33,652 nucleotides of DNA. It comes from Catajapyx aquilonaris (taxonomy: Eukaryota). How positions within the stretch are numbered: position 1 is the stretch's first letter; each line of letters begins with the position of its first letter. The notes beneath the pieces are model-generated. The model did not search any database, had not been told where the DNA came from, and saw only the letters and a program-made list of their open reading frames with translations. The position numbers were made by a program, and so were the translations under genes. Location: contig KZ539091.1 of the NCBI GenBank assembly GCA_000934665.2, positions 1 to 33,652 on the forward strand, given 5' to 3'. Shown piece after piece: positions 1-32,862 of this stretch.

Positions 1-236
1 GGGCGCGTTCTATAACACCCTTTTTGCGTTCATTTCACTTCGCGTGACGTCAACATTTTCTAGGGAAACAGTGACGTCACCATTTCCCTACATAAAACCC
101 CCAATTACTCCGGAACGGGAACTGATATCTTAAAACGGAATATGCCAAAAAAATCCAAAAAATATGGGCGAATTTATTATGTAGTTTCCAAAATGAAGGC
201 TAGTTCCCCATTCGATTGTGAAATTACCTTGCCTAT
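1..236. mobile_element. Possible end of a non-autonomous DNA transposon
   Basis: Two GTGACGTCA palindromes and MITE-like composition. The partner terminus is outside the window and cannot be verified. Confidence 0.25.
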
Positions 237-264
237 ATACAGTACAACAATAGTAGTTGCATAC

Positions 265-385
265 CTTTTCAGTTGGGTACATTAGAACCTAGTAGGGTTG
301 ATACTCACCTGTAAGGAAAGAAAACATGATTTAGTACATTATATTAAACAGAAAGAGGAAGGAAACCGTCAATTAAATTGCAATT
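265..385 (-). other. Recursive splice site (ratchet point) AG|GT at 309/308 with a 44-nt cryptic exon (308-265)
   Basis: The minus strand reads ...TACTAAATCATGTTTTCTTTCCTTACAG|GTGAGTAT. This gives a branch-point-like TACTAAA, a pyrimidine tract, about 75 nt free of AG, and an acceptor fused directly to a consensus donor. A second donor AAAG|GTATGC lies 44 nt downstream. Confidence 0.72.
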
Positions 386-4990: not shown

Positions 4991-6184
4991 TGCTAATTAT
5001 TATTTCTGGGGCCGTTTGTCCTCCCAAGATCGTTCACGCCCATTCCCCGGCTAAACCCCCGACATCACCACTGACGATCAAATCGACACCACTTAGTGTC
5101 CAGTAAACTCCCTTCCCCAAACCCAGAAAAAATTAAATCGTGAAAAAAAATAACAATAATGAAACTATGGCGGAAGACGTTGTTGGTATTCATCGCGTAT
5201 CGGACTTGGTACTTTTTCAAAGATCTGATTGACGAGCACGCAACTCTGAATCGTTACTTTCTATCTAAACGTTTATATAAAAGTGGTTCAGTGAACTGCT
5301 ACCATGCACTCTTATCCAAAAATAATTTGTTGATATGCGAGTGTACGAAACATTCTGAAGAGAAATGATGGGGGGCTGAGAAGACAACAAGCGACAAATT
5401 ACATGTCGCTGATTCCGCACATACCCAACTCTTCCTAGTCAATCGACTCTCCAGGGTGGTCAGTTGATTTTTTTCCCCCTCCAAAAATGACACGAAATCA
5501 TATGTTTATACGTAACTTAGGCAAGTACTACACAAGTACCGTCTACAAATTTCACCACGTTCAAAATCCTGTTGTCGCGATGTCATCCTTTCGACACGGT
5601 CTTCCTTGACCAACGCCCTGTCGGCCTGCCTATGAACACCTGTGCAATGCCCCACGCCCGGAATACGACAAGGGTTCCGTTTAAATAATTATCACGTCAG
5701 GGTAAACGAGAGCCGTCTGCCCATCTCGTTAACCCGCGTTAAAACCGAGCCCGCCCGCCCGCGAGGCAACTTGCTAGTCTGCAACCGACCTCTGTCTACA
5801 CACTCACATGTGGAAGTCATGGGCCGTTGCCGCGAATTTATTTCGCATCGCACGCGCGTGTCCACTGCCGGACTTAATGTATGCCGTTTACCTCGAGGCG
5901 GGATGAAAAAAAAACAGGACCGTGAGAATCAAGTTTTATGTGATCAAAATAAAGTTGGGCGTAAACAGTAACATCAGTAGGCTAATTATATGGTGGTCCT
6001 ACACTTCAGAGGTATAATTCTAGGGGGAAAGAGGTGGGGTGGATCAGTATGTAATGCCTCGACTATTAATTTTTAACGCATCAGGCGTTACTTGTTAAAA
6101 AATGACACGTGCACATTTGGATAAACTGTGGGGTCCTGATGGTGGCGACACATCAGGACTCGGTGCAGATATGGGAAATTGTAA

Positions 6185-11890: not shown

Positions 11891-12799
11891 GACGAGCGAT
11901 GAGTGCATATGTGACGATGTATCCCGTTGGCTGTATACCAATTCATCATTTTCTCAGTACCCATTTGTTCTCCAAGTATATGTTGATGCTGTACCTCCTA
12001 CGTCAAAAATCTCGAGGACTGAAATGCAATCCCGTCAGAATAACGCCCAGATAACAAGCAGCAATATCGTCTCATGTTAGACCTCTCCAAATAATTAACT
12101 TGTACTTACCTGACGAAAATCCTGGCACACTACCCTAAGTGACTTCAACGCCCCGAAGTCTTGGCTAAAGTGTACTGGTATTCTAATGAGGCTCATGTTG
12201 GAATAGATTGCCAGCACTGTTGGAAATATTCGCCTCAAATTACCCCTTTTCGTGACCCATCTTCATCATAACAAGACCCAATCTAGCCCCCCCCCCCCTC
12301 CACCAACGTCCCCCTTGCCCTTCTACTCTGATCAATATCTAGTTTCTTCTCAGTTGCCATTATAATCTTCAGATGGGAAGCCCATACTGAAGACAAAAAA
12401 AATAATCAGTTATATCATTAAAAAGAGCCTTACAGCAGGTCTTCGAGATATATGAGAATTTTCCGTAGCACTATAGTTATAGGCCCATCAACCATGGACC
12501 TATAGCAGGATACACACCCTCCCGCTCTAAACAGAAAAATGGTGACGAGCCATGACAGACATGGAGGTGAAAATGGCTAGCGTAAGGGCCAACGTTCATT
12601 TCCTCGGGTTGACACCCCCAGCCAAAATGCAGAAGAGCGTGTCCACATATCGAGAAGCCCCAGCTGGGTGCAGCAGGCAGGCAGGCAGGCCAGTGTGCGA
12701 GTGCAGGTGCAGCAGCCATGGTGCGGTGGGGGGAGAGGAAGCCGATATGGAATAGAGTGGGAGGGAAAACATAATAAATTCTTGGGGAGGAGCGAAAGG

Positions 12800-15431: not shown

Positions 15432-15480
15432 TTCTTCTTCTTCTTCTTCTTCTTCTTCTTCTTCTTCTTCTTCTTCTTCT
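15432..15480 (+). repeat. (TTC)n microsatellite
   Basis: About 16 perfect units. Confidence 0.97.
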
Positions 15481-16638
15481 TTTCATCTCACCCTCCCTCA
15501 CCCCCACATCTCCGCCCACTGAGAGGAAAAGAAAACAATCATATTCATAATCTAATGTAAAAACCCACAGCACATTTCCCCAACGCCATCCATTTTCTCC
15601 AGCCCCTATCTCCGCTGCACATCTTCTCTTTCTTTTCCACCCACCCCCCGCACTCTTAATATTTACGATCCGTGTTGCGCGCGCCACGTGACTTCACCCA
15701 CTATACACCATATATGCCAGATCATACCGTAACCCACACCTGTCCACCAACCATCAATCCGGCCCATTTACTTTATATTATTTTTAATTCATTTATTTGT
15801 CGCGAGATATGGGTAAAAATAGAGCCATTTGTGTGGTGCCCAAATGACGTTGTCTTCTTCGGTTCTCACCGGAGCATGATGATCTTCACGTTGCACACCT
15901 TTTTACTCCATGGCCCCCAGGCCGCCTTACTTATATTGCACCTCCAGCACCATTATGCACACTATACTTTGGCTATCTGGCAAGAAATCATCCCACACCT
16001 GCATCATAAACGCGCCCCTCTTCGATCAACTGCTTGGGTCTAATTTCACGCCAAAAGAAAACCGGCTAACGTCCTGGGGAAAAAAAAGAAGAAAAAAAAA
16101 ATCCACCTCCCACCTCCACTAAATAAGACACGAGAACCGGGCGTCTTGTTGGGACAAAAAATGCCGTTTTCCACTACATAATATTATCGCCCGCCTTTAT
16201 CAATGCATATGATGGCCAAGTATGGCGGGTAACTTGGGACAAAATGTGGCGTGGGAGCACGTGTTCTCTAAACGACCTGCCCCTGCAACTACACTAAAAC
16301 GGCGACCCTGACAAATCCGTACAAAAAAAAGCAGCCGTTAGCCTAACCTGCGACCTGTGATTGCTTACAATATGTGGTCCACTTTTACGCTGACCACTAA
16401 TGCAATGGTTCCCCCTCATAACACCGCACACCTTCGGAATGCGCAAGTGCAATATACCCTACATATAGCGTCAATATCTCAAGGTTTCCTAAGAGCGCCA
16501 TTAGTTGCTACTCATAAGCCCATATCAAAATATAAGTCCGAGGTCTCCGGTGACTCCGTTACTTGGAATTTTTACTGCACAAATTGTACGCTTGAAAAGA
16601 AATGGTGACGACATAAATTTCAGCTTGCATAATATATG

Positions 16639-25637: not shown

Positions 25638-26180
25638 AATAGTGCATAGTGCAATAATATCCTCACCAAACGGTCCTTACTATGTTACCTCCACTGTCCT
25701 ACAGCTATAGTCATTTGACGAAAAAGTGTCTCGGAATTTCTCTAAAAATCTCTGCAGGGATTATCCATCAAGCATCGGTAACAAGCGTCCTCTATATCAT
25801 TAGGGCAGTGACTCCATTTAAATGTCAGGACAACTTCGTCGCGGGCATTCGGCCTATAATATCTGCCTATACAGTACACATTATTCCGTGCATGAAGCAG
25901 TTATCCTGCTTTTATCCTAACCTACACCCGGGGCTATCACTGACTTGTGAGTCTCCTCACAGGGAAAGTACATGTTCCAAGACATACTTGTAAACTGATA
26001 AGATCGCATTACAAAGTGTTTCATAATTAATAATTAACATAATATTATCATCGCATAATGTCAATGACCAATATAGGCCAAGTGGGAGAAATATAACAAA
26101 ATGTATTACTGTATATACCGTATATGTTTCACAATTTTCAAATAGTAGGCGAATATTGAGATTCCTTATTTATAGGTCTA

Positions 26181-26602
26181 CAGGGTGATTCCGGTAACTT
26201 TGGCAAAAATCACAGGGTGGGTAGAGGCCCCATAGTCAAGTATTTTGGGCTTCGGTACCTATGTCCGGAAATGCCCCCATACGGGGGTACGGCCGTTTCC
26301 ACCTTTAGTATGTTGCGCCTGTTGGGTAGGCAACCCATCGTACTCGAAGGTAGCGTTCATCAGGTTTTGCACTTGACATTCGCATGTTTTCACCTTCGTC
26401 TCCTCCACACGCGACACACCTGATGAACGCAAGTTTCGAGAACGATGGGTTGCCTACCCACCAGGCGCAACATACTAAAGGTGGAAAAGGCCGTACCCCC
26501 GTACGGGGGCATTTCCGGACATGGGTACCGAAGCTCAAAATACTGGCCTATGGGGCCTCTACCCACCCTGTGATTTTTGCCAAAGTTAACGGAATCACCC
26601 TG
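26181..26602. mobile_element. Tc1/mariner-type MITE (422 bp) with about 185-bp terminal inverted repeats and TA target-site duplication
   Basis: TA|CAGGGTGATTCCG...CGGAATCACCCTG|TA. Arms 26181-26365 and 26418-26602 are near-perfect reverse complements around a 52-bp spacer. No coding capacity. Confidence 0.92.
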
Positions 26603-27641
26603 TACATATTTCTGATTCTGGACTGGGCACTCTCAGATAATGAATTATGTTATGTTTCCCTATATTCTGAACAAGATCCACACACCTTAAGATGATTAGT
26701 CACTTCGCATAAGGGATGGTTTAAAATACCACAACAACATATCGAGATGATCATATTGTGAGAATCTCAAGAGCATTTCTTTTCTCTTTTACTTCAGGAT
26801 AGTTCTCTAATATTCACGGCCTGTTGCGAGAGACTCTTTCTTTTGTGAGTCCGGACCATCCTGAATAATAAACCAACCAAGGGGGTAATTTAAAAACATG
26901 ATCCTATTCATTCCTCTACTGGTGAACCTATTCGTCCCAAACATGTCCACATCTAATTCCATCCTCGGGTTCGCGCGTGAGAAGCACAAAAATTCTATTG
27001 CACCCACGGACCTGATATCCATTAACAATGGCATGCTCCATCACCATTTCGAATTCGAAATGCCGTCACAGGCCTTCGAAACGCCCTATCAAGTGTCCAC
27101 AGTAGTATAATAGATCAGGTAATACATAGTAGCGTTTCTAGATAGGTACCTCACCTTCACTGCTGATAACTACAGGATCCGATAATTGGCTTCTTCCTGG
27201 CTCCATGAAGGTTGCTTTTCCTGTACAGATTAGTTGGTTAGAATGACACTTGTGACAGGTTCGACGCATAGTCGATCCTTTTCATAGCAGCCCACGGTTT
27301 TATCGTAACTTACATTCCTCGTGAAGAATATATAGGTTACAAACGTTACGTTGCATTAATTAATATTTCGAATATCTACTCGTCCCATTGGTGCTATTTT
27401 TCTCTCCGACGGTCGTCGTTACATCTGTAAGATATTATATCTGCATCCTCCGTAATGGAGCGGTAGATCTGTCATATTGGGGTACATGTGCAAGATGAAA
27501 TAATTCATTGCAACCTCTCGAAATTAATAATACTTTGTCACCTGAACAGATTCGGCACACACTAATTACGTCAAAATGAAAGTATGAATAATCATACATT
27601 ACATTTTGTATTAATATGAAGATAGCAATAAATTGCTGTCG

Positions 27642-28174
27642 TGTACTATGGGGCTCAAATTGTTTTGGCCACTTTATCCTGATCTTGAAGCAACACTTCA
27701 CACACACACACACACAAACACACACTCTTGTCTTGACTAAGGCGTGGGGATGGACATTGATCACTTTTCACTGCGAGTGTAAACTGATCTAACCTAACCT
27801 AACCTAACCTAACCTAACCTAACCTTACCTTACCTTACCTTACCTAACCTATCCTACCTAACCTACCCTACCCTAAGTAACCTAGGCTGAGAAAAATGGA
27901 CTTTTGTGAAAACCTACAAATGAAAATAGTGGGGACATGTCCCCACTAATTTACACATGTCCCCACTGTAATGGTACACTTCGCGTGTGTGAGACTGTGG
28001 GGACCGACAAATGTCCCCACAATTGGAACTGGTCCCCACAGCTACAGTAAAACCACAGACTTCCGTCCCCAGACCTTAGTCAAGACCTGATCACCTGCTC
28101 AACGTGGGGCCTGTGTGAAGGGTTGCTTCAAGACCAGGATAAAGTGGCCAAAACAATTTTAGCCCCATAGTACA
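27642..28174. mobile_element. Non-autonomous element with nested inverted repeats, (CA)n, (CCTAA)n and GGGGAC/GTCCCC motifs
   Basis: Outer 63-bp inverted repeats at 27642-27704 and 28112-28174 (3 mismatches). Inner 25-bp inverted repeats at 27730-27754 and 28062-28086 (3 mismatches). Internal palindrome GTGGGGACATGTCCCCAC and repeated GTCCCCAC. Confidence 0.8.
27789..27885 (+). repeat. (CCTAA)n array degenerating to CCTTA/CCTAC; the reverse complement of the arthropod telomere repeat TTAGG
   Basis: About 7 perfect TAACC units followed by TTACC and other variants. Confidence 0.9.
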
Positions 28175-28580: not shown

Positions 28581-30047
28581 CCAGCAAAAAATTGTTACAT
28601 AGAATAAGGAGACGGCTCAAGATGCCACCGGGCCGAGCTTAGGACATAATAATTATGAGAAGGCGAGCCGGAAGCCAATGTTGTTATAAGGCTTATGATG
28701 GACGATGAAGGAGTGAGAGGTCAGCAGCATGGATGGAAGTTGCCGGCGTCCTAATCAGTTCTAATCGCATTTCATGTCCGGATAATGCTTGCTCTCATTG
28801 CACATTACTGTAAGCAATCCTTCTTACCTCTGGAGTCTGTCAGTCCACCTCTATAACTGGGCACCGAATGTGACTAATGTAAATAGTGCTTCAGGCATTC
28901 AAATGAAAACTGCACTGTAGACCCTAAGTCGTTCATTTAGCATTTTCTTAAAAAGCAGGTTTCAAATTGAATGCGACTAACCTGAGGCGAGTTATAAATT
29001 TTGGACTATTAGGTATCCAGTTTCCGGTGCACCACTGGCCGTATGTCATTTCAAAAGTAGACTTACAAGTTATATCACCACAGGTTGCCGCTTTGGTATA
29101 TTTTTAAAAGGCACAATTTATGTTGGGAAAATAATATGATCGCACATCAATAACGCTCCAATTCTGACTCGCATTATTAGCGGATATAATTTTTCCAAAG
29201 TTCTTTATTGACATTAAGGTGACACGCCAGCATTTTTGAAAAAGTTTTAACTGCCTTTTATTTATCTTTATTTTTTTGAAAAGCATACATTATGGTACTA
29301 GACTAATATTCAACAAGCTCAAAACAAGCAGGGCCATAATCAGCCACATTATACTTAATATTTGCAAATAGCCCTGGTGTTAGAGCCACAACCATTCAAT
29401 GTAGCAACAAACTCTCCCATTGGTCAACACCAGCCACTGGCTAGTTCGAGGGATAAAAAAAGAGAGGGGGATAAAAAGAATGAGCCAATAGGAAATGATC
29501 GCTTTTGCATGAAAAAGGGCCAAAGTAAGATAAAAAGTCCTTGCCTGAGGGCAGATTGCCAGACAATAGACAAATGTGTGAACAAAGGAGCTGCTTTTGC
29601 ATTCCAAATCCCCCACTCCCTCCCTGGCGAAGTATGGGAAAAACGAGAGGGGGGGGTATGGGGGGTGTCAAGTGAAAAGGGCATNTGAAAAGGGCATACT
29701 GCCCACACTGCATTATCAATTGCCTTTGCAGAAAAGGGGAGGAAAACAACGGGGATTTTTTTTTTTTTTGCATAAAAAGTGTACAAAATTGGGGGAGGCG
29801 GGAAGGCCGACCAACATTGGCTATACACGTTATTATTACCATGAACAAAACCAACCTTACATGAACGTGTTTAGGTAAGATAACTGGCGGCAAACTTAAA
29901 CCGGGGGCATACTTTGCATCGACACAAGTTGAACCCGGCGGGTGTCCGCTGACAAGTGGCATGCAGCCAGGCAGGTGCCAACGTGCGCCCGCGACCACGT
30001 GGGCTCCCGGCCCGGAGGGAGAGTCAAATCAGGTGAAAAGTACTTAC

Positions 30048-30087
30048 GCTTAAGCGGCTTGGGATGGCTCTGCTTGCGTCGAGACAT
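30048..30087 (-). CDS. ush: First coding exon (40 nt, phase-1 donor) of a FOG/U-shaped-type zinc-finger cofactor; encodes the NuRD-interaction motif MSRRKQSHPKPLK(R)
   Basis: The minus strand reads ATG TCT CGA CGC AAG CAG AGC CAT CCC AAG CCG CTT AAG C|GTAAGT. MSRRKQxxP is the NuRD-binding N-terminus shared by FOG/ZFPM, SALL, BCL11 and ZNF423/521. The QS-x-P-x-x-x-KR variant is closest to FOG1/FOG2 (MSRRKQSNPRQIKR / MSRRKQSKPRQIKR). From memory, vertebrate ZFPM genes also have a 13-codon+1-nt first coding exon. The zinc-finger exons are outside the window, so the family assignment is an inference. Confidence 0.78.
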
Positions 30088-30540
30088 TGGTGGTGGCAAT
30101 GTCGTACCTCCTAGTGGCACCTGCAGTTGCTGTCCTGACACCACCGCAGCACCGGCTCCGCTGCACTCATCCTCTTCCTTAACTCCAGAAGTTTCTTGCT
30201 TGGCTTCACTGTCAGACTGTTGTCGATCAGGGCGAGCGTGACTGCCGTGACGGTCGAGCCACGTCTCGCTCCTCAGCATCCGGGGTCCCCCCCTAATAAC
30301 TCGCCAACGGGCCAACGTGCTACCTAGCCCGCCCGACTCCGAAAGCAGACCTCGTCTTGAACGCACCGAGCTGCACTGCCCGCCCCCAACCCACCTCCGG
30401 TCTACTCCTCCATCATTTAACTCCTCCCACCAACACCATAACCTACGACCTTCTTGCCATCTATCCGCCTAATTCGCTACCTCCCACGTAGTCAGTAGAT
30501 GGCAGCATAGTTTCATTGATCCGCGGCCATTTTAGTCAGC
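30088..30540. promoter_or_regulatory. GC/CpG-rich 5' leader and promoter region of the minus-strand gene, probably bidirectional
   Basis: CpG-rich and immediately upstream of the ATG. Contains a GC box (CCGCCC near 30380), a CTCF-like TCAGTAGATGGCAGC at 30492-30506 and a YY1/PHO-like GCGGCCATTTT at 30523-30533. The exact TSS cannot be determined. Confidence 0.6.

Positions 30541-31656: not shown

Positions 31657-31710
<54 letters not shown>
31422..31710 (+). mobile_element. Old, degenerate tRNA-derived SINE with a V-domain-like core and a possible (ATT)n tail
   Basis: The head GGCATGGTAGTGCAGTGGTTAGTGCT is A-box-like, with a decayed B-box at CTCAATCCC. The core GAGTTTCAATGGTTCTCTTCTTGTTCATATGGATTTTCTTGAGGTTCTCCCATTTCCT resembles, from memory, the V-SINE core GAGTTTGCATGTTCTCCCCGTG..TGGGTTTCCTCCGGGTGCTCCGGTTTCCT. 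(ATT)n runs from 31658 to 31710. No TSD seen. Confidence 0.55.
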
Positions 31711-32716: not shown

Positions 32717-32862
32717 ATCTGTAGTTTGTTCAGTGAAAGAATGCCATGATGTCACTCTCTTTAACAATGAATGACTCGCAGGTTGCCTGACGACTTATTC
32801 CTTGTCATTCATTGTTAAAGAGAGTGACATCATGGCATTCTTTCACTGAACAAACTATAGAT
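32717..32862. repeat. Long perfect inverted repeat (54-bp perfect stem, 59 bp with one G-T pair; 28-nt loop)
   Basis: 32722-32775 is the exact reverse complement of 32804-32857. Confidence 0.95.

Follow-up and report, generated by a model that had tools for sequence, protein, structure and literature searches.

A recursive splice site probably lies in the first, long intron of a gene that resembles the zinc-finger genes u-shaped/FOG. Exon 1 of this gene is in the window, by which we mean the whole stretch of Catajapyx aquilonaris DNA that was analysed (33,652 nucleotides). We argue that the site is an intronic ratchet point of the Drosophila type and that it heads a short cryptic RS-exon. The signal that ends an intron is fused here to the signal that starts one, and removal of the intron is therefore likely to be stepwise, as it is in fruit flies. 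The initial annotation had proposed a ratchet point whose cryptic exon could also act as an NMD switch. The ratchet point is supported at the sequence level, where the full fly-type layout is present: a fused AG/GT (the slash marks a splice boundary), TT just upstream, a branch motif at -23, an AG-free zone and a donor 44 nt further on. The switch is not supported.

The site occupies positions 385 to 259 and is read on the minus strand, as are all features of the gene given below. Every coordinate and letter first reported for it is correct to the base, and the branch-like TACTAAA, the AG-free pyrimidine stretch, the fused GTGAGT and the second donor 44 nt on are all present. The AG-free, pyrimidine-rich zone is 75 nt long (311..385) and has two pyrimidine tracts that flank the branch-like motif, the upstream one being TTTCCTTCCTCTTTCTGTTT. 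The previous AG is at 387/386, which leaves an AG-to-AG gap of 77 nt before the acceptor AG at 310/309. On the sense strand of the intron 25 of 1830 such gaps are at least this long. The TACTAAA lies at 330..336, and its putative branch A at 331 is position -23. TACTAA is found within -15 to -45 of 5 out of 1829 intron AGs, and CTAA stands at branch distance in 2 of 31 acceptor-like sites. Next comes the polypyrimidine tract with its acceptor, TCATGTTTTCTTTCCTTACAG, at 309..329. It has TT at -6/-5, a placement shared by 150 of 1829 intron AGs and by 11 of the 31 acceptor-like sites. The pyrimidine fraction of the last 15 nt before the site's AG is 0.87, a value that 19 of 1830 intron AGs reach. 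The acceptor ends in TTTTCTTTCCTTACAG, whose last base is 309, and GTGAGT (303..308) is fused directly to it, the boundary falling between 309 and 308. This GTGAGT is the candidate ratchet-point donor, with the G of its GT at 308.

The predicted cryptic RS-exon is the 44 nt at 265..308. It would be closed by the donor AAG/GTATGC (AAAG/GTATGC when one more base is counted) at 259..264, which has its GT at 264/263 and matches the consensus at 7 of 9 positions. A further donor-like AAG/GTAATT at 222..227, read by eye and unscored, would close an exon of 81 nt instead. The 44-nt exon is out of frame and has an in-frame TAG when joined to exon 1. Ligated in this way it reads MSRRKQSHPKPLK-REYQPY-stop, and the frame ends after 19 codons. 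The phase of exon 1 and the early stop in the mini-exon were both part of the initial annotation, and our own reading reproduces them exactly.

The coding part of exon 1 is at 30048..30087. It starts with an ATG at 30087-30085 and has phase 1, because 13 codons plus 1 nt follow from that ATG. Its donor, AGC/GTAAGT (...CTTAAGC/GTAAGT), occupies 30042..30047 and has 7 of 9 consensus matches. From this donor it is 29,739 nt downstream to the candidate site, which is on the sense strand; this bears out the figure of about 29.7 kb first given for its depth in the intron. The intron is at least 30 kb long, and its end and exon 2 lie beyond the window. Between exon 1 and the site the DNA appears to be non-coding, though small exons may lie there. 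None of the 41 ORFs of at least 90 aa in the whole window reached the Pfam cut-off (there were 2 sub-threshold low-complexity hits), and no part of the window matched an Rfam family. Positions 1-264 were considered as a place for exon 2 and rejected, since by our own reading the two acceptor-like AGs there meet stops within 6-14 codons in phase 1. The idea that the site is a copy of a repeat was rejected as well, since positions 1-1000 have no second copy in the window. An exact 25-base scan of metagenome contigs returned 0 matches, and no look-alike stretch turned up in the other genomes scanned.

A GC-rich island at 29900-30400 runs from the exon 1 leader through the short coding stretch into the start of the intron. 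Its GC content is 0.57-0.65 against 0.45 for the window. An upstream in-frame ATG at 30279 would put 64 extra residues before the MSRRKQ start. A 2026 preprint associates recursive splicing with first introns whose upstream donor has CG-rich flanks. The GC-rich flanks of the exon 1 donor would be a loose parallel to this.

We infer the splicing steps from the anatomy described above. Exon definition would pick out the 44-nt stretch 308-265 between the acceptor at 309 and the donor at 264. Exon 1 would be spliced to 308, and the first 29.7 kb of the intron would leave as a lariat with its branch near 331. This ligation would restore a donor, AGC/GTGAGT, that is near-identical to the original donor of exon 1. 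The regenerated donor would remove the cryptic exon together with the remaining intron, and the mRNA would keep nothing of the site. In the RS-exon model as reviewed for flies, a ratchet point heads a cryptic exon of about 50 nt that is closed by a downstream donor and is defined first (PMC8605326). The same review describes the regenerated donor in fly as generally stronger than the RS-exon donor; it usually outcompetes the latter, and the exon is removed.

The relative strength of the two donors is where the present site departs from this description. After ligation to exon 1 the regenerated AGC/GTGAGT is one purine off the exon 1 donor AGC/GTAAGT. When it is set against the RS-exon donor AAG/GTATGC the consensus matches are 7/9 vs 7/9, and crude U1 duplex energies are -6.0 vs -5.7 kcal/mol. 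By these crude measures the regenerated donor has no clear advantage over that of the RS-exon. Near-equal donors would leave room for some inclusion of the cryptic exon, though these measures are too coarse to establish it. In its sequence the site has every feature of the Drosophila type save a clearly stronger regenerated donor.

The fused motif is rare by every count that was made. YYYYYNYAGGTRAGT has 1 match on both strands of the window, where the shuffle mean is 0.01 and a match appeared in 1 of 100 shuffles. For the sense strand of the 30,047 nt of intron, 1000 dinucleotide shuffles averaged 0.007 matches where the DNA has 1, and 7 of them had one or more. Shuffling destroys natural pyrimidine tracts, and therefore a conservative null was also computed. 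It takes the acceptor-like sites that are really there (YYYYYNYAG, 31 of them) and applies the local GTRAGT rate to each. With the tracts retained in this way, 0.013-0.034 fused motifs are expected on the sense strand of the intron part. There are 148 AGGT sites on the minus strand of the window; 7 of these have at least 14/20 pyrimidines upstream, and among the 7 the present site alone is followed by GTRAGT.

The sole other AG/GTRAGT on the sense strand is at 12109 (minus strand), where TTTTCGTCAG/GTAAGTAC gives AG/GTAAGT at a distance of 17,938 nt from exon 1. Its pyrimidine tract is short and poor (11/20), and it has no TT at -5/-6. We regard it as a weak candidate for a further ratchet point. 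At 5891 (minus strand) an acceptor-like stretch with 17/20 pyrimidines is fused to a weak donor, TTTTTTTTCATCCCGCCTCGAG/GTAAAC.

One can imagine that acceptor and donor came together by chance here, and that the spliceosome ignores the site or uses it only as noise. Between 0.01 and about 0.08 core motifs are expected per window (both strands), and over hundreds of this genome's windows some false examples are expected. Since a few chance core motifs are expected over that many windows, the argument draws on all the features together and on their context, and not on the core motif by itself. The downstream donor does not help much in this respect, as 21-26% of intron positions have a donor at least as good as AAG/GTATGC 20-100 nt downstream of them. 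Taken alone it is weak evidence and unremarkable. However, the remaining features are rare ones that were known beforehand from fly sites (TT 11/31, CTAA 2/31, the 77-nt gap 25/1830). The product of the feature rates is about 1e-4 per 30-kb sense strand if independence is assumed. The site is also on the sense strand, in a long intron of a developmental regulator, and this is the gene class where fly sites concentrate (Pai, PMC6110457). We therefore consider a chance juxtaposition unlikely. It should be added that a preprint on lungfish states, in the text available, that long introns do not necessarily rely on recursive splicing there, and this counts against reading the site as a ratchet point. 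A different scenario keeps the exon and gives it a function. The 44-nt stretch, or its 81-nt version, would be an RS-exon that is expressed or regulated, or else a poison cassette, and would be present in a meaningful fraction of transcripts. The frame would end after 19 codons, and less of the NuRD-binding isoform would be made, either through NMD or through a switch to a downstream start. Inclusion does bring a stop codon, and since the competing donors are about equal in crude strength the cryptic exon may not always be excluded. Ubx is an example of a gene with an expressed RS-exon (PMC8605326), and some fly Ush isoforms are without the N-terminal motif (Lenz 2021). However, a stop is the default for any non-coding insert of 44 nt, as about 3/64 codons are stops and 2/3 of lengths shift the frame. 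Cryptic RS-exons are in general out of frame and are normally removed (Joseph and Lai, PMC8605326). Since an out-of-frame stop is what non-coding sequence gives by default, nothing specific argues for the NMD switch of the initial annotation. We think it quite unlikely that the exon is a regulated one.

The GTGAGT at 308 could also serve as donor to an alternative first exon, if transcription starts at a promoter within the intron. That isoform would have 7 residues of its own, as fly Ush-A has 7 unique ones. There is an ATG at 327-325 (minus strand), 19 nt before the donor, and the frame that it opens (MFSFLT + 1 nt) has the phase of exon 1 and is free of stops up to the donor. Fly ush does have alternative promoters, with 7 unique N-terminal residues in Ush-A versus 14 in Ush-B (Lenz 2021), and two CRE-type palindromes are close by at 45-52 and 72-79. 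With 1 ATG vs 3 stops per codon, we estimate that an in-phase ATG ahead of a stop arises by chance about 1 time in 4. Two upstream ATGs with immediate stops come first, and the CRE pair is downstream of the donor, not upstream. This scenario also leaves the perfect acceptor, the branch motif and the AG-free zone unexplained. We hold an alternative first exon to be very improbable. The palindromes are worth describing in their own right. Both are perfect copies of TGACGTCA (CRE/ATF-type), 27 bp apart, and lie beyond the cryptic exon on its downstream side, at about 190-260 nt. In the whole window TGACGTCA has 3 matches vs 0.33 expected, and 0 of 100 shuffles reach 3. The CRE/ATF-type pair could belong to an enhancer in the intron or to an alternative promoter close by; the region continues past the window's edge.

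The identity of the gene is a separate question. The exon 1 peptide, MSRRKQSHPKPLK, matches, at residue 1, what we take to be the letters of the FOG repression (NuRD-binding) motif. Our best guess is that the gene is ush-like, and we put this at somewhat better than even on the strength of 13 residues and of exon structure and phase. The main alternative is an OAZ-like gene. Fly Ush-B has 14 unique N-terminal residues that include the FOG repression motif and bind NuRD, and in the fly proteome only Ush and OAZ are reported with the motif at the N-terminus (Lenz 2021). The motif itself is not specific to ush, since according to the same paper mammalian Sall4 and BCL11A carry it too. A short first coding exon (13 codons + 1 nt) with an intron of at least 30 kb behind it is consistent with the Ush-B arrangement and is not diagnostic of it. 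The family's array of about nine zinc fingers, among them those that bind GATA factors, would be encoded by the downstream exons, all of which are beyond the window. Protein searches seeded with exon 1 gave 79 candidates for a 77-aa query, none at E<=1, and 6 candidates for a 40-aa query, none at E<=10.

The closest comparison for the site is with the ratchet points of fly genes such as kuz, Bx and Ubx. These have the same fusion of acceptor and donor at AG/GT and the same prominent tract with TT at -5/-6, a dinucleotide found in 196/197 fly ratchet points, which are conserved among Drosophila species (Duff et al. 10.1101/006163). They too lie deep in long introns of developmental regulators and have a short out-of-frame cryptic exon with a second donor. 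The core TTACAG/GTGAGT of the present site is identical to that of several experimentally supported fly sites (Pai S1 rows 23, 39, 56, 63). The differences are that the present site is in a non-Drosophila arthropod, that it is predicted from sequence, and that its regenerated donor is not clearly stronger. The S1 Table of Pai 2018 (PMC6110457) lists 539 fly sites. In it AGGTAAGT is found 37 times and AGGTGAGT 51 times, which makes 88 motif hits. With just 88 hits in a table of 539 sites, the GTRAGT core is neither necessary for real sites nor typical of all of them. It marks the strongest fly sites, not all.

The fly ush gene (FBgn0003963) itself has a high-confidence recursive site, 2L:508865, in a 34-kb intron at 2L:491358-525390 (Pai S1 Table, PMC6110457). 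The site is flagged there as also found by Duff et al., and its junction reads are 336, 249, 140 and 0 across the labelling periods. It divides the intron into recursive segments of 17.5 and 16.5 kb, and another ush intron has two further low-confidence entries in the same table. The gene in the window is probably the ortholog, and in both an intron (at least 30 kb here) lies upstream of the common exons. In both, a single strong ratchet point (here a candidate) is far from the upstream exon, the distance being 17.5 kb for the fly site and 29.7 kb for the present one. However, the fly site reads ...TTATTTCCAG/GTTGGT, and only the generic motif is common to the two. The orthology is argued from 13 residues and exon phase, and the fly intron may or may not be the one after the Ush-B exon. 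Since fly site and present site share the generic motif and nothing beyond it, they might be related by descent, and we would not put it more strongly. A bolder scenario is that stepwise removal of the intron behind the NuRD-motif exon is ancient in u-shaped/FOG genes, with donor competition as a tunable switch. The switch could choose between the NuRD-binding isoform and a frame that ends after 19 codons, possibly leaving an isoform that starts downstream and has no motif. We mention this scenario as a long shot.

Other known systems share parts of the layout. Vertebrate RS-exons (Sibley 2015, Blazquez 2018, as cited in PMC8605326 and PMC6224609) are likewise defined first, have a donor regenerated at the 5' end, and are skipped or included according to donor competition. 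Mammalian RS-exons differ in that, by the same two accounts, they are mostly annotated and included, and the exon junction complex represses their recursive donor. The present exon does not code, and its inclusion would do harm, as in the fly pattern. Poison exons coupled to NMD also bring a premature stop on inclusion, but ordinary ones have no donor fused at the first base of the exon. The nearest case outside Drosophila is the 230-kb intron of the locust NPF1 gene (PMC8892266). That is also a non-Drosophila arthropod, and its site was also predicted with the fly motif and has a branch point and pyrimidine tract upstream. It differs from ours in having some experimental backing, in the form of U2AF65 RNA immunoprecipitation, where the present one was read from the DNA.

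A recursive site in an invertebrate other than Drosophila had been put forward as notable in the initial annotation. The novelty is lower than this implies, as a recursive site has already been proposed in the locust gene (PMC8892266). A 2024 preprint names fruit flies, mice and humans as the species in which recursive splicing has been identified. In the arthropod literature, as far as the sources were available, locust NPF1 with its partial experimental backing is the only case proposed outside Drosophila, and the available text of a preprint on bees mentions recursive splicing merely to exclude it. What we add is the link to the validated site of fly ush and the near-equal strengths of the two donors. 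If the site is used, then ratchet points of the fly type extend to another arthropod lineage. Since a ratchet point has been validated in fly ush, use of the present site would also pose the question of an old origin for the one in the ush/FOG intron. Loss of the GTGAGT donor is predicted to insert a frame-breaking exon of 44 nt into a key haematopoietic and developmental cofactor. Equivalent donor mutations in fly kuz and Ubx are strong loss-of-function alleles (PMC8605326).

Several minor features of the window remain to be described. The genome had been called CpG-methylating, which goes further than the window suggests: its observed/expected CpG ratio of 0.77 is only a mild depletion. A tandem repeat at 27789-27884 consists of 19.6 copies of the 5-base unit CTAAC on the plus strand, and is thus TTAGG-type on the strand of the gene. 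TTAGG is the usual telomere unit of arthropods. Inside this repeat a GGTAA variant forms four tandem AAG/GTAAGG donor-like motifs, 2.2 kb into the intron, and these could be decoy donors or U1-binding sites. Palindromic (self-complementary) stretches are found at 26179-26604 (about 430 bp) and 32717-32862 (146 bp). Their arms are about 86% identical, and they may be foldback or MITE-like elements. There are also two perfect trinucleotide arrays, (TTC) with 16.7 copies at 15432-15481 and (TAT) with 18 copies at 31657-31710.
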